This document shows, in pieces, positions 14,482 to 18,516 of a stretch of DNA of 64,000 bases. Origin of the DNA: Planctomycetota bacterium (GTDB lineage Bacteria > Planctomycetota > B15-G4). How positions within the stretch are numbered: position 1 is the stretch's first letter; each line of letters opens with the position of its first letter. The DNA is taken from positions 64,001-128,000 of the forward strand of contig JBBQUR010000002.1 in NCBI GenBank assembly GCA_038212275.1. The letters run 5' to 3'. The position numbers and the translations under genes were made by a program. The notes under the pieces were generated by a model. The model was not told the DNA's origin, made no database searches, and saw only the letters and a program-made list of their open reading frames with translations.

Positions 14482-14919
14482 ATGGGAAGCGGAGAGGACG
14501 CATTGCTCGATGCTCGTTTCCGCCGGATCTGGGACTCGGCGCGCTTGCCCGAGCCAGCCCGGTTCGACTGCGCGAACGACGCGCACGTCGAGGAGCTGGC
14601 CTGCCTGCTGCTCGAGCGATTCCGCAATCACGGTGACGCCGAGGCCTTCGCGCTCCTCTTCCAGTTGACCGGTCCGAGGCTCGAACGCATCGCACGACGC
14701 CTGCTCGACCGACACGCCCGGGCGCTGCAGGCCCCCGACGTCGTGGAGGCCTTCAAGCGCCAGATCTTCCTGCACGGTCCGGAGTCGCCGGTCCGGCTGA
14801 TCGGCAGCTTCCTGGCCCTGGCCCGCAGTCACATGGAGCATCGCCTGCGGATGCCGTCGCAACCCCCGAGACCACCCCGCCCCCCAGGACGCCCCCACGG
14901 AGATCGCCACCGGACCTGA
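14482..14919 (+). CDS. Sigma region-2-only protein, paralog of the two downstream ECF-like sigma factors
   Basis: FDCANDAHVEELACLLLERFRNHGDAEAFALLFQLT aligns by eye with the N-termini of 15170-16819 and 17695-18516; no region-4 HTH. Confidence 0.65.
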   Translation: MGSGEDALLDARFRRIWDSARLPEPARFDCANDAHVEELACLLLERFRNHGDAEAFALLFQLTGPRLERIARRLLDRHARALQAPDVVEAFKRQIFLHGPESPVRLIGSFLALARSHMEHRLRMPSQPPRPPRPPGRPHGDRHRT

Positions 14920-14992
14920 GACCTCCTCCCCGAGTCGCCGCCGCGCGTTGCGCCTTGTGTCGGCGCACGCAGACAACGGCTCGCCGCTGCAC

Positions 14993-15108
14993 TTATCCAC
15001 AATTCGACGGCGGCCGAACCTGCCCGAAAACCACATCCACTGGAGCCTTCGCGGGTCATATGCACCGCGGGGTTGGATAGTTCTCCATTCCGGGGTTACT
15101 TTTCCACA
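14993..15108 (+). promoter_or_regulatory. DnaA-box-like motifs in a lower-GC intergenic region
   Basis: Perfect TTATCCACA at 14993-15001 and one-mismatch TTTTCCACA at 15100-15108. Confidence 0.35.
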
Positions 15109-15169
15109 GGCACGTCGTCGTGTCACCAGCACCCGTGGACCAGCGGGTGCCTGTCTCCTGAGGGAGGAG

Positions 15170-16819
15170 ATGGAGGGCAGGTTCTTGGACGTCAGTCATT
15201 TCTCAGCGCGCTTGATTGCCATGCCGGGAGCGGCATGTCTCGAGCACCTGGGGCCATTCGACCCGCGCGAGGACGCGCATGTGGACGAGGCCGCGCGATT
15301 CCTGCTGGATCGCTTCCGGCAGCACAGCGACTTGGAGGCCTTCACGCTCCTTTTCGAGCTGACCCACTCCAGGCTGGCCAGTTCGGCGGATCGCATCACC
15401 CGCAAGCTGGCCCCCGCGGTGCAGGCGGACGACCTGGCGGCGGCCTTCATGGCCCGCCTCTTCGCCGACGTCCGGCACAAGTCCAGCGAGCCGGTGCGCC
15501 ACTTCCTCGCGCTGGCCCACACGTCGATGCGGAACGACCTGCTCGACCAGCTCCGGCAGCACAAGCGCGCCGCTGCCAACGGCCGCGGCTACCACTCCAC
15601 GCTCCGCGCCCCGGCCGATCCAGCCGAAGAGCTCGCCTCGATGGAGGAGGAGCACCTGCTCCTCGGGTTCGGACGCGCGGTCCTCAGGCTCACGGCCGAG
15701 TGCTTCCAGGAGCTCGACCCGCGCGATCAGCAGGTGCTCGTGGCGCGCGAGATCGTGCGCCTGCCGTATGACCGCGTGGCCAGCATGCTCCAGCTTTCTA
15801 CTGATCAAGTGGGCATGATCATTCGCAGAGCGCGCATGCACCTGGTCAATCGCATCGTAGCCCGCATGCCCGAGGCGGCAGCCAGCGCGGACGTGCCCTT
15901 CGACGCCGGTCAGCTCCAGTCGCTGCGCGACATGGTGGTCAGCAATCTGGGCAGCAAGGAAAGCACGCGGCACGTGCAGGCGCTCATGCAGCGCATGCTC
16001 GACCTTTCCGCGGAGGCCGGCCGCCGCAAGCTGGCCGACCTGATCTACGAAATGGCCAAGGCCTGCCTCGTGGTGGCTCCGGGCTTCACCACCCGCACGC
16101 TGATCGCCGCCGAACCGCGCCGCAGCGGCGTGGTGGGAGGCGACCTGCGCCAGATGGCAAGCCGGCTGGCGGGCGTGGCCGGTGCACCCGACGTCGCGCG
16201 CCTCGCCGACACGCAGCCCGAACCCGGCACCGCGCTCGACGACGCGCACGCCTGCCTCACCAAGCTGGCCGAGATCGAGGGCACGTCGGGCCGGCAGCAG
16301 GTCGCACTGGCCCTCGCACACATCCACGGCGGCAAGCCGACCGACGCGGAAGGCATCCTGCGCCCGCTGCTCGATCGCGAACTTCCGGCCCGCACGCGCC
16401 AGAACGTCTCGCGCAACCTCACGCTGGCCCTGCTGCGCCAGAACCGGCACGCCGACGCGCTGGCCACCGCGGAAAGCGCTGCCAGCGAATGGCCTGAAGA
16501 TCCGGTGCGCGTAATGAACCTCTGCTACGCCTCTGCCCGCCTGGGCGATGCGTCGCGCTTTGCCCGGTACGCGGCCGACCTCACGACGTTGTACCGGCAC
16601 ACCCCCAGCGATCGTGTGCGCGCCTGGCTCGACACCGAGTTGCCGAGCCTCGCCGCCGAGGTGGGCCTCAGCCACCTGCTTCCCGACGTGCCCTCGCCGG
16701 TCCCGCCCGAGGCGGAACCGCCCGAGACAGAGACGTTCCGCGCCGCCTTCACCACGGCGCGCTCGTCCGCAGCCTCCTCAGCCACCGTCCTGCCCGATCC
16801 CGGTCACAGGGACCTCTGA
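15170..16819 (+). CDS. ECF-like sigma-70 factor with long C-terminal helical/TPR-like extension
   Basis: Region 2: EAFTLLF..ADDLAAAF..FLALAHTSMRNDLLDQLR. Region 4: ELDPRDQQVLVAREIVRLPYDRVASMLQLSTDQVGMIIRRAR. TPR-like RNLTLALLRQNRHADALATAESA..WPED near the C-terminus. Confidence 0.75.
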   Translation: MEGRFLDVSHFSARLIAMPGAACLEHLGPFDPREDAHVDEAARFLLDRFRQHSDLEAFTLLFELTHSRLASSADRITRKLAPAVQADDLAAAFMARLFADVRHKSSEPVRHFLALAHTSMRNDLLDQLRQHKRAAANGRGYHSTLRAPADPAEELASMEEEHLLLGFGRAVLRLTAECFQELDPRDQQVLVAREIVRLPYDRVASMLQLSTDQVGMIIRRARMHLVNRIVARMPEAAASADVPFDAGQLQSLRDMVVSNLGSKESTRHVQALMQRMLDLSAEAGRRKLADLIYEMAKACLVVAPGFTTRTLIAAEPRRSGVVGGDLRQMASRLAGVAGAPDVARLADTQPEPGTALDDAHACLTKLAEIEGTSGRQQVALALAHIHGGKPTDAEGILRPLLDRELPARTRQNVSRNLTLALLRQNRHADALATAESAASEWPEDPVRVMNLCYASARLGDASRFARYAADLTTLYRHTPSDRVRAWLDTELPSLAAEVGLSHLLPDVPSPVPPEAEPPETETFRAAFTTARSSAASSATVLPDPGHRDL

Positions 16820-16820
16820 C

Positions 16821-17465
16821 ATGAAGCCCTCATCCAAGCACCTGCTGAGCCGTACCGCACTCGCCTTGCTCACACTGTTGGGCGGCGCACCTTCGGCCTC
16901 GCTGTCCGCGATGGCTGGCGTGTCCGAACGGCCCGGCCGCCCGGCGCAGCTCGGCAACGACGGCGTCGGCGGCATCGAGAAGACCGGCGGCGTCGGCCCC
17001 GCGGGCAGCGGCCCCGGGGGCAAGGTCGGCCCCGGCGGCACCGGTGGTTTCCTCCCCGGCGGCCCTGTCGGTTCGACCAGCTCGGCCAGCCCCTCGGCCT
17101 GGCACGACCTTGGCGAAGCCCTCGGCACCACGGCCGTGCTCCCCACACTCGAGGGTTCGGGCACCGGCGAGGCGGGGACGCTGGTGGTCCTGTCGCTCTC
17201 CGACGCCAGGCCCGGCGCGGTAGCTGCCCTGGTCATCGGAATCTCCACGCTGAACGCCCCGTTCAAGGGCGGGACGCTGGTTCCCACGCCGATGCTCATC
17301 ATTCCCGGCCTGCCGGTGAACGGCGCGGGGACGCTCGATCTTCCCGCATTGCTCCCCGCGTCGGTGCCGTCGGGCCTCTCGCTCTGCATGCAGATGTGGA
17401 TGACCGACACGTCGGCCGCGAAGGGTTTTGCGGCAAGCAACGCGCTGGAGCTGCTCGTCCCCTGA
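16821..17465 (+). CDS. Small secreted protein: signal peptide + Gly-rich linker + 'PFKGG' C-terminal domain
   Basis: MKPSSKHLLSRTALALLTLLGG; starts 2 nt after the sigma gene stop; domain at 17097-17465. Confidence 0.8.
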   Translation: MKPSSKHLLSRTALALLTLLGGAPSASLSAMAGVSERPGRPAQLGNDGVGGIEKTGGVGPAGSGPGGKVGPGGTGGFLPGGPVGSTSSASPSAWHDLGEALGTTAVLPTLEGSGTGEAGTLVVLSLSDARPGAVAALVIGISTLNAPFKGGTLVPTPMLIIPGLPVNGAGTLDLPALLPASVPSGLSLCMQMWMTDTSAAKGFAASNALELLVP

Positions 17466-17694
17466 GCCCTCCCCTGAGCCCTCCCCGGAGCCCTCCCCTG
17501 ACCGGCCCCTAGACCGAAGCCGGCACCGAGGCCGGCACCGAAGCGGGCAAGCCTGCGCGGCGTCGGGTCAGCTCGGTGGCGTCGGTGCTCGCCCGACACG
17601 GGTGCCGGTCGGTAAGCTCCCTCACGGGCAGTTCGGACGCAGGGCGGTCAGGCGCACGGGAGCGCCCCGGCCGTCGGCGGAAGATGAGCAGGGA

Positions 17695-18516
17695 GTGCGC
17701 TTGGACAAGCCGGCGGACGACACCGACTTCCTCGTGCGCAACATCCGGCGCGTCTGCGGGCAGCCGGATCTCGTGCTGCCCGAGCCCTTCGATCCGCGCG
17801 ACGACCGCCACGTGGATCTCGCGGCCTGCGTGCTGCTGCACCATTTCCGCGAGCACGACAGCGCCGATGCCTTCACCGTGCTGGTGCAGCTCAGCCAGAT
17901 GCGCACGTCCGCCATCGCACGGCGCATCACCCGACAGCTCGGCCTCGCGGTGGATCCCGACGACCTCGTCGCCACTTTCTTCGCCAACCTGTTCGTGGAC
18001 CTGGTCAAGGACCAGCCGCTGGTGCACCGATTCCTCGGCTTCGCCCACACCGCGATGCGGCACGAGGCGCTCAATCAGCTCCGCCAGTTCCGGCGCGCGC
18101 AGGCCCGGCACATCATCTGGGGGCAGCGCTTCCTGGGCGGCTCGGCCGACCCGTCGACCGTCATCGCGGAGCGCGAGGAATGCGAACTGCTCGAGCGCAG
18201 CGGCACGACCTTCCTGCTCGTGGTGAATCAGTGCTTCCACGAGTTGTCCGAGCGTGACCGGCGCGTGCTGCTCGCGCGCGAAGCCGACGGCCTTTCCTAT
18301 GACGACATCGCCGTCCGGCTGGACCTGCCGCGCAACCAGGTCGGCATGATCCTGAAGCGCGCGCGCACGCGCCTGGCAGGGCGCATCGACGACAGCTTCG
18401 CGCGCCTGACCGAGGCGAGGGCCGCCGCTCAGGCGCGCGGTGCGCTCGCCCCGCTCTCGCGCGCCGTGCCCGAGTCGTCGGACGACGCCGAGGCGGAGGA
18501 AGCCGGCGCCCGCTGA
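17695..18516 (+). CDS. ECF-like sigma-70 factor
   Basis: DAFTVLVQ..PDDLVATFF..FLGFAHTAMRHEALNQLR; ELSERDRRVLLAREADGLSYDDIAVRLDLPRNQVGMILKRAR. Start is GTG 17695 or TTG 17701. Confidence 0.8.
   Translation: MRLDKPADDTDFLVRNIRRVCGQPDLVLPEPFDPRDDRHVDLAACVLLHHFREHDSADAFTVLVQLSQMRTSAIARRITRQLGLAVDPDDLVATFFANLFVDLVKDQPLVHRFLGFAHTAMRHEALNQLRQFRRAQARHIIWGQRFLGGSADPSTVIAEREECELLERSGTTFLLVVNQCFHELSERDRRVLLAREADGLSYDDIAVRLDLPRNQVGMILKRARTRLAGRIDDSFARLTEARAAAQARGALAPLSRAVPESSDDAEAEEAGAR

Follow-up and report, generated by a model that had tools for sequence, protein, structure and literature searches.

How are three closely related sigma-like proteins controlled when no separate anti-sigma factor is encoded beside them? 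The question is raised by a locus in a 64,000-nucleotide stretch of the genome of a Planctomycetota bacterium (contig JBBQUR010000002.1, positions 64,001 to 128,000 of the forward strand; this whole stretch is called the window, and its G+C content is ~71%). Three genes of the locus, A, B, and D, encode paralogs of extracytoplasmic function (ECF) sigma factors. Comparison of the window with the rest of its own genome (G000), with related genomes, and with metagenome locus L045, the closest relative found, suggests with a probability of about 60% that the locus is a lineage-specific module of paralogous pairs of ECF sigma and anti-sigma factors, with partners that are fused, free, or lost, and that A is a mimic of the sigma2 domain. 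B appears to be a sigma factor with a soluble putative partner fused to its C-terminus. The partner would be composed of a long helix homologous to E, a protein encoded after D in relatives, and a solenoid of tetratricopeptide repeat (TPR) type. D appears to be the unfused sister of B, whose partner E is present in most relatives and was probably deleted in the window's genome. A probably arose from a B-like copy together with its promoter; truncation would have left the sigma2 domain alone, and selection has maintained it since. The parts of the locus that encode the three proteins are:

14482 to 14919, plus strand: A, sigma2-only ECF paralog of 145 residues, with N-terminal LDxRFxRxWD..LP..FDxxNDxH and a variable proline-rich tail.
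15170 to 15904, plus strand: B, sigma part with the N-terminal FDP motif, region 2, linker, and region 4, delimited from the open reading frame (ORF), profiles, and orthologs; Shine-Dalgarno sequence GGGAGGAG before the ATG at 15170.
15905 to 16819, plus strand: B, C-terminal extension with a long helix (homologous to the helix of E that follows the zinc motif), a TPR-like solenoid, and a disordered tail.
17695 to 18516, plus strand: D, minimal ECF paralog with regions 2 and 4, no partner gene here, probable start at TTG 17701.

The initial annotation of this DNA described A, B, and D as paralogs on the same strand, and the ORFs, their translations, and a three-way alignment agree. A is 38% identical to B and 31% identical to D, and 30 columns are invariant in the three proteins, including F28, D29, D33, H35, V36, L43, L44, F47, R48, H50, A55, and F56. 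The domain layout given there holds as well: A stops after a region-2-like segment, B (549 residues) continues beyond region 4 with ~300 residues of helical, TPR-like sequence, and D consists of regions 2 and 4 followed by a ~40-residue tail. The ORF of D encodes 273 residues, or 271 from the TTG at 17701, which is the more likely start because the database copy has 271 residues and AGGGAG lies just upstream. The sequences QVGMI(I/L)(R/K)RAR and FL(A/G)xAHTxMR, noted earlier as odd, are conserved throughout the family, with Q215, G217, R222-R224, F113, T119, and R122 invariant across 21 homologs. Because the same motifs are found in every ortholog, the likeness of A, B, and D is not due to chance. 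The N-terminal motif described as private is so only in part. ECF profiles match B from residues 51-68 onwards, which means that the second half of the motif, LLxxFRxHxxxEAFxxL, is how ECF sigma factors ordinarily begin. The truly private part is FDPxxDxH(V/L)(D/E) with the helix that precedes it, and this part is conserved in every ortholog.

B and D are ECF-like in an atypical way, as had been proposed. Both pass the ECF superfamily model TIGR02937 (51.5 and 51.1 bits, respectively; cut-off 42.9) and Sigma70_r4_2 (27.6 and 45.0 bits; cut-off 25.7), and both score under the cut-off of 24 for Sigma70_r2 (20.9 and 17.5 bits). When the family profile is compared with the PDB, the matches to ECF sigma factors cover region 4 only (E ~2e-5). 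None of the NCBIfam subfamily models is approached (best 38-40 bits against a cut-off of 130), and the NCBIfam models of long ECF sigma factors, among which ECF41 and ECF42 are presumably represented, give 21-24 bits against cut-offs of 240-323. As far as the group descriptions in the supplement of PMC7826278 go, none of the Planctomycetes ECF groups fits the design of B and D. These results, together with Pfam and a narrow distribution, support the earlier view of an unclassified group: B and D are apparently atypical ECF-like sigma factors of a narrow clade that is undescribed with respect to NCBIfam, Pfam, and the group descriptions in PMC7826278.

Judged by sequence matches among the sampled genomes, the clade of B and D occurs almost only in one Planctomycetota family. 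With D as the query, 14 of the 15 genomes of the family to which the window belongs contained relatives, 6 of 11 genomes of a sister family gave weak matches (E 1e-11 to 1e-13), and 14 genomes from three further families of the same order gave none. A clade profile with a threshold of E<=1e-25 matched all seven sampled genomes of the family and one of six from the sister family, that is, one of ~293 genomes of the phylum outside the family; nothing was found in ~287 sampled genomes from other families of the phylum. The counts depend on the sampling and are to be read as "not found", not as "absent".

Within the family, the order GlgP-[A]-B-C-D-[E]-AspK is syntenic. Searches with tblastn of the window's proteins against 16 regions identified two M14 peptidases, glucan phosphorylase (GlgP), A in some regions, B, C, D, a convergent aspartate kinase (AspK), and DapA. 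The order M14-GlgP-[A]-B-C-D-...-AspK-DapA is kept in 11 related genomes and in L045, and the A-B-C-D synteny that the initial annotation had named as a check is thus present in relatives. Alpha-glucan phosphorylase is encoded 5' of A or B in all loci examined. B and its extension form a single frame in 13 loci, in 12 of which C lies between B and D. The gene order of L045 is that of the window, and the identities between the two are 82% for D, 76% for A, 83% for the sigma part of B, 76% for the B extension, 54% for C, 86% for GlgP, and 88% for AspK.

The statement that the locus has no visible anti-sigma factor is correct for D in this genome; it does not hold for the family, where E, the homology of the B extension to E, and a free form of the partner were found. 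In 13 of 15 D loci of relatives, the ORF of E starts at the stop codon of D, with an overlap of 4 nt (ATGA) in 12 loci and of 1 nt in one. The E proteins are 123-306 residues long, and 10 of the 13 contain Hx3Cx2C at residues 27-54. E thus has two features of class I anti-sigma factors: Hx3Cx2C within an N-terminal helical domain, and a co-translated +1 position. In class I anti-sigma domains, sigma4 is bound by helices 1-3, where the zinc motif is located, and regions 2.1-2.2 of sigma2 are bound by helix 4, which is connected through a flexible linker (PMC7406223).

In the window, no E follows D. The aspartate kinase gene comes directly after D, and the 3' ends of the two genes overlap by ~88 nt:

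18429 to 18516, no strand assigned: convergent 3' overlap of D and the aspartate kinase gene, at the place of E in relatives.

E is also missing after D in L045, and L032 retains only a C-terminal remnant of it. Because E follows D in most relatives, the absence of an anti-sigma factor beside D in this genome is interpreted as loss of E. The overlap fits a deletion of E together with the terminator region. The overlapping ends of D and the aspartate kinase gene encode low-complexity tails, which have no counterpart in relatives. A search of the window's genome with the E profile detected E-like ORFs only beside other sigma factors or inside B and B2, a further paralog clade. Other sigma factors of the superfamily in this genome have E-like genes at the +1 position. 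At G000:C9:7000-11500, on the minus strand, a 494-residue fused sigma factor is encoded in tandem with a 268-residue sigma factor and its ATGA-coupled partner of 331 residues, which contains HIASCGPC. The two C9 sigma factors are more distant paralogs, 33-35% identical to D.

The B extension is related to E. Alignment of the two with hhalign gives a probability of 97.5% (E 5e-12, 109 columns) and pairs columns 68-176 of E with columns 27-135 of the extension, that is, with the part after the zinc motif. From these columns it follows that the shared part is the long helix after the zinc-motif region and the part that comes next. The stretch RHVQALMQRML of B was considered as a degenerate zinc motif and dropped, because hhalign aligns it to the post-motif helix of E. 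In the AlphaFold2 model of the extension (predicted local distance difference test, pLDDT, 85.4), all secondary structure is helical, and a long helix precedes a helical repeat. Neither the sequence nor the model shows an evident transmembrane segment. The model matches TPR proteins with Z scores of 12-15, where values below ~13 are background for helical repeats, and the best Foldseek matches in the PDB are consensus TPR proteins (E 2e-3). Neither list of structure matches contains an anti-sigma factor, which excludes nothing. Among PDB sequences, the extension profile matched IFT88 alone (E 2e-4), on its TPR repeats, and the Pfam families TPR_14, TPR_19, and TPR_16 gave weak matches in 10 of 14 extensions.

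The partner also exists as a separate protein. The B2 clade is represented in the window's genome (G000:C3, locus L044) and in G015:C17 (locus L041). The B2 sigma ORF ends with a TGA inside ATGA, and the ATG of this overlap, which is preceded by GGAGG-type sites, opens an ORF of 281 or 275 residues. The free partner ORFs align with the whole B extension at 33-37% identity. In L044 (G000:C3:198000-216000), the B2 sigma factor and its free TPR partner (8387-10086) are encoded between a class-V-aminotransferase-like gene and the gene for a 1687-residue protein. ORFs that were named peroxiredoxin-like and bacterioferritin-like from reading their translations lie upstream of this split pair.

The same observations bear on the proposal that the clade has no anti-sigma factor at all and that its truncated, extended, and minimal paralogs control one another directly. 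No separate anti-sigma ORF is present at the window locus, and a search of the rest of the genome with the E profile gave no unattached copy, as this proposal would have it. Direct mutual control is nevertheless very unlikely, given the E genes after D in 13 of 15 relatives, the homology of the extension to E and its free-standing form in B2, and the E-like +1 genes of superfamily sigma factors in the same genome.

The third paralog, A, has no Pfam family and carries region 2 only, which sets it apart from the two-region ECF sigma factors. According to a hidden Markov model of the A family, 7 of the 13 B-holding loci have a distinct short frame between GlgP and B, and all these frames end just past region 2. 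In a FastTree tree of the region-2 segment, all six A sequences are monophyletic (support 0.90) and adjoin the B clade on long branches. The tree is based on ~95 residues and on A from the window and five relatives, L045 not being among them; its deep nodes are unreliable, and the two C9 outgroups attach within the B clade. Eight further A clusters, annotated as hypothetical or unnamed proteins, were found in a word-indexed database; they are 110-159 residues long and 49-88% identical to A. Across nine A homologs, 36 columns are invariant. An exhaustive profile search of 1.84 billion representatives gave 78 matches at E<=1e-3, of which the best nine are all 110-159 residues long; 24 of the 78 have 170 residues or fewer, and some of these are fragments. 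The ratio of nonsynonymous to synonymous substitutions (dN/dS) between the window and L045 is 0.245 for A (145 codons), 0.209 for the sigma part of B, 0.352 for the B extension, 0.272 for D, 0.299 for GlgP, and 0.569 for C. On this evidence, A is a real gene under purifying selection.

A could instead be a decaying, functionless remnant of a tandem duplication, whose ORF has escaped interruption only because a G+C content of 71% makes stop codons scarce. Such a remnant might well be missing from 6 of 13 loci, as A is, match no Pfam family, and form long branches. The mean pairwise identity of A across genera is 0.35, compared with 0.61 for B and 0.53 for D in the same columns and genome pairs. 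Decay is, however, hard to reconcile with a dN/dS like that of the neighbouring genes, with the invariant columns, with an identical end point in seven loci and a promoter motif retained in all seven, and with the dominance of the short form among the best matches of the exhaustive search. A functionless A is thus extremely unlikely.

A and B are preceded by the same promoter-like motif, and a conserved block lies upstream of the site of B:

14426 to 14450, plus strand: promoter-like site of A, GTTAG-N16-CGTC, with the same motif before all seven A orthologs.
14993 to 15087, plus strand: conserved A+T-richer block TTATCCACAATTCGA ... GGTCATATGCACCGC ... GTTGGATAGTT, upstream of the B promoter and near-identical in L045.
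15095 to 15119, plus strand: promoter-like site of B, GTTAC-N16-CGTC, present in all 13 B upstream regions.

All 20 A and B genes (six A and 12 B genes, plus A and B of L045) have the motif GTTA(C/G/T)-N16-CGTC upstream, 112-246 nt before the FDP codon; none of the 15 D genes and neither of the B2 genes is preceded by it. The 64-kb window contains exactly two matches, at 14426 and 15095, where 0.28 are expected, and two of 100 shuffles reach two. In the whole genome there are 14 matches with the spacer of 16, compared with 3-14 across spacers of 10-22. Because other spacer lengths give up to 14 matches, the motif by itself shows no enrichment across the genome. What gives it weight is that every genome has it in the same position before A and B, although the spacer around it varies. 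The shared promoter type indicates co-regulation of A and B, not mutual control. The upstream region of D contains a -35-like element, G(T/G)TA, in 11 of 16 loci, in which no common -10 element was found. A third copy of GTTAG-N16-CGTC, outside the window at G000:C2:24543 (plus strand), lies 55 nt before the gene for a 331-residue signal-peptide protein that has the C-terminal domain of C; this protein may be a further member of the regulon.

The A+T-richer block between A and B is nearly the same in L045, where the flanking spacer is not, and blocks resembling GTACAA...TCCAAAA occupy that place in other genera. From this conservation, the block may be a site for a second regulator. The 5' leader of B, from the -10 element to the ATG (15120-15185), is identical in L045. 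A hairpin in this leader that pairs CUCC with the Shine-Dalgarno GGAG (-29.7 kcal/mol) was rejected as not significant (z -1.47; equalled by 15 of 200 shuffles).

From the homologies, the synteny, the fused and split forms, the loss of E, the promoter motif, and the selection on A, we infer the binding events, the direction of each effect, and the mechanism of A in the following way. B, D, or both would read the GTTA(C/G)-N16-CGTC promoters before A and B-C(-D), which would result in autoregulation; they are the candidate readers because they share the QVGMI(I/L)(R/K)RAR helix and a near-identical region 2.4. The B extension would mask regions 2.1-2.2 of its own sigma2 domain through the helix shared with E, until its TPR part binds a cytoplasmic signal. 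A would be induced together with B. With its helices resembling regions 1.2-2.2 and without the region 2.4 signature, A could mimic sigma2 and compete for the helix of the extension. It would thus be an anti-anti-sigma factor and cause positive feedback, as PhyR does, and the secreted protein C would be the visible output.

The sequence of A can be read in more than one way at this point. A retains the hydrophobic pattern of regions 1.2-2.2 and FL..A..M. It lacks D.DL..F..RLF.D of region 2.2 and T.MRN and QLR of region 2.4, which B and D conserve, and it has invariant features of its own (LD.R..R.W..LP, ELACLLLERF, and IARRL). That A competes as a sigma2 look-alike for the anti-sigma-like helix and frees its parent sigma factor, giving positive feedback without a kinase or protease, is a tentative proposal, somewhat short of even odds. 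It is preferred, as a weak call, because A has kept the surface contacted by helix 4 of class I anti-sigma factors and has changed residues conserved in B and D.

Alternatively, A may be dominant-negative: a free sigma2 domain would occupy either the -10 element or, on core RNA polymerase, the beta' clamp helices, damp transcription by B and D, and produce negative feedback. The promoter type that A shares with B would suit this role, as would the retained helices resembling regions 2.1-2.2, which bind beta' in ECF sigma factors (PMC7406223), and a brake would make sense in a genome where D has no partner. The loss of region 2.2 residues conserved in B and D and the gain of separate motifs indicate a changed partner rather than the same contact with RNA polymerase. 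Moreover, E is present in 5 of the 7 loci that encode A, so A is no replacement for a lost anti-sigma factor. A dominant-negative A is therefore unlikely.

Several observations weigh against the interpretation of the locus as a module of sigma and anti-sigma pairs with a sigma2 mimic. For A, these are its dispensability in the six loci that lack it and its divergence across genera. The AlphaFold2 model of A, built from nine sequences, has a pLDDT of 62.6 and is too poor to test the sigma2 fold; its comparison with the PDB by Foldseek gave nothing at E<=0.001 and no sigma2 structure, the top rows being designed helical repeats. The surface retained by A also binds the beta' clamp helices, and mimicry directed at RNA polymerase is equally compatible with it. 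For the partner, the curated anti-sigma models are not reached by E: zf-HC2 matches 2 of 13 E proteins at E 0.047, RsrA and ChrR match 2 of 13 at E 0.02-0.09, and RsiW and DdvA give E 0.1 and 0.22, respectively, none of these values being significant. The TPR matches of the extension are generic, and Hx3Cx2C is found in none of the 14 B extensions. By analogy with ECF42, an extension without the zinc motif could activate its sigma factor rather than inhibit it.

In that case, the B extension would be a required positive module, and the free B2 form and E would be co-activators or sensors. The TPR-like character of the extension and its lack of Hx3Cx2C agree with this, and the TPR extension of ECF42 is described as essential for activity (PMC7826278; PMC8999054). 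Against it stands the part shared with E, which comes after a zinc-motif N-terminus in 10 of 13 E proteins; this layout and the ATGA-coupled +1 position are those of class I anti-sigma factors (PMC7826278; PMC7406223). An activating extension is considered rather unlikely, and the reading of the extension and E as anti-sigma-type partners is retained.

The elements of the proposed module have precedents, and fused and unfused pairs, TPR extensions, adjacent paralogs, sigma mimicry, and split sigma factors have each been described separately (PMC7826278; PMC8999054). Like B, ECF42 proteins combine an ECF core with a soluble TPR-type extension and have no adjoining separate anti-sigma factor. 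Unlike B, they have an extension of ~200 residues and a YCII-related gene at the -1 position, and are described mostly from Actinobacteria and Proteobacteria (PMC7826278). No YCII-related -1 gene was found at the B loci, where the -1 genes are A and glucan phosphorylase. The B extension further differs in beginning with a helix homologous to a zinc-motif +1 protein and in being free-standing in a paralog clade. Fused and unfused pairs within one clade, as found here, are also known from groups with fused anti-sigma factors (ECF270s2, ECF243 IutY, and ECF48/52/53). ECF270s2 has a soluble zinc-finger anti-sigma factor that is fused in 60% of cases (PMC7826278), and in IutY the anti-sigma factor is fused at the C-terminus (PMC8999054). 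These groups belong to other taxa or have membrane-bound parts, whereas B has lost the zinc motif in 14 of 14 extensions, carries a TPR solenoid, and has no transmembrane helix.

For A, the partner switch of PhyR, NepR, and EcfG serves by analogy as the working model. PhyR has a sigma-like fold and does not act as a sigma factor; it titrates the anti-sigma factor and thereby frees the real sigma factor (PMC8999054). PhyR combines a sigma2-like and a sigma4-like part with a receiver domain under the control of phosphorylation, whereas A is sigma2 only, has no receiver or other domain, and is seemingly controlled by its own sigma-type promoter. A sigma2-like part on a separate polypeptide is also known from SigO-RsoA of Bacillus subtilis (PMC7826278). 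RsoA complements a partner on another polypeptide. In the present locus, B and D both carry complete regions 2 and 4, so there is nothing obvious for A to complete, and no region-4-only gene is among the ORFs of the locus. RsoA apart, searches of open-access papers and preprints gave no conserved paralog that is limited to sigma2, has a sigma-type promoter of its own, and is encoded next to complete paralogs. In ECF262 of Clostridiales, neighbouring, co-transcribed ECF sigma factors of the same group are proposed to control each other through the extension of the partner (PMC7826278). They differ from the present locus in phylum and in extension domains, and the description of the group in PMC7826278, as far as it goes, reports no truncated paralog or conserved promoter motif.

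The gene between B and D encodes the protein that is likely the output of the operon:

16821 to 17465, plus strand: C, secreted protein with a signal peptide, a glycine-rich linker, and a ~115-residue C-terminal domain, starting 1 nt after the stop codon of B.

Because of the 1-nt distance between the stop of B and the start of C, and because D abuts C in four or five relatives, B-C(-D) is probably one operon. C consists of little other than the signal peptide and the C-terminal domain. The final ~115 residues (…LNAPFKGGTLVP…SNALELLVP) gave ~100 tblastn matches with 30-53% identity on more than 25 contigs of the genome, usually at the C-termini of proteins. Further copies in the window lie at 23111-24643 (minus strand), ~34905-35225 (plus strand), and ~42846-43220 (minus strand). 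The domain has no match in Pfam or NCBIfam, and the protein atlas gives only unnamed Planctomycetota clusters, with scores of 0.88-0.89. From its recurrence at protein ends, it looks like a C-terminal domain, greatly expanded in number, for the sorting or anchoring of secreted proteins. Tandem repeats are present in the spacer between C and D (12 bp x 3.7, 17458-17501), in the tail of the aspartate kinase gene (9 bp x 5.3, 18552-18599), and 5' of or inside the start of the DapA-like ORF (21 bp x 5.9, 97% matches, 21221-21343).

Bacteria signal to a large extent through ECF sigma factors, which also serve as orthogonal parts of synthetic circuits. At this locus and its relatives, closely related sigma factors are accompanied by one partner protein in its free, fused, and lost states, a natural series that makes control by a soluble TPR-type partner directly testable. 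The clean promoter motif, with very few copies in the genome, makes the regulon easy to define. The locus also offers a conserved and selected sigma2-only paralog with a sigma-type promoter, of which, RsoA apart, no description was found in the open-access papers and preprints searched. If A is a decoy, domain mimicry by truncation would be a simple new layer of ECF control: an anti-anti-sigma factor made by truncating a sigma factor, in a locus that would show every stage in the evolution of sigma and anti-sigma pairs together, namely the free pair, the fused pair, the orphan sigma factor, and the decoy. If A is not a decoy, the family still adds a new and well-defined subgroup of ECF sigma factors, from a phylum that has received little study.

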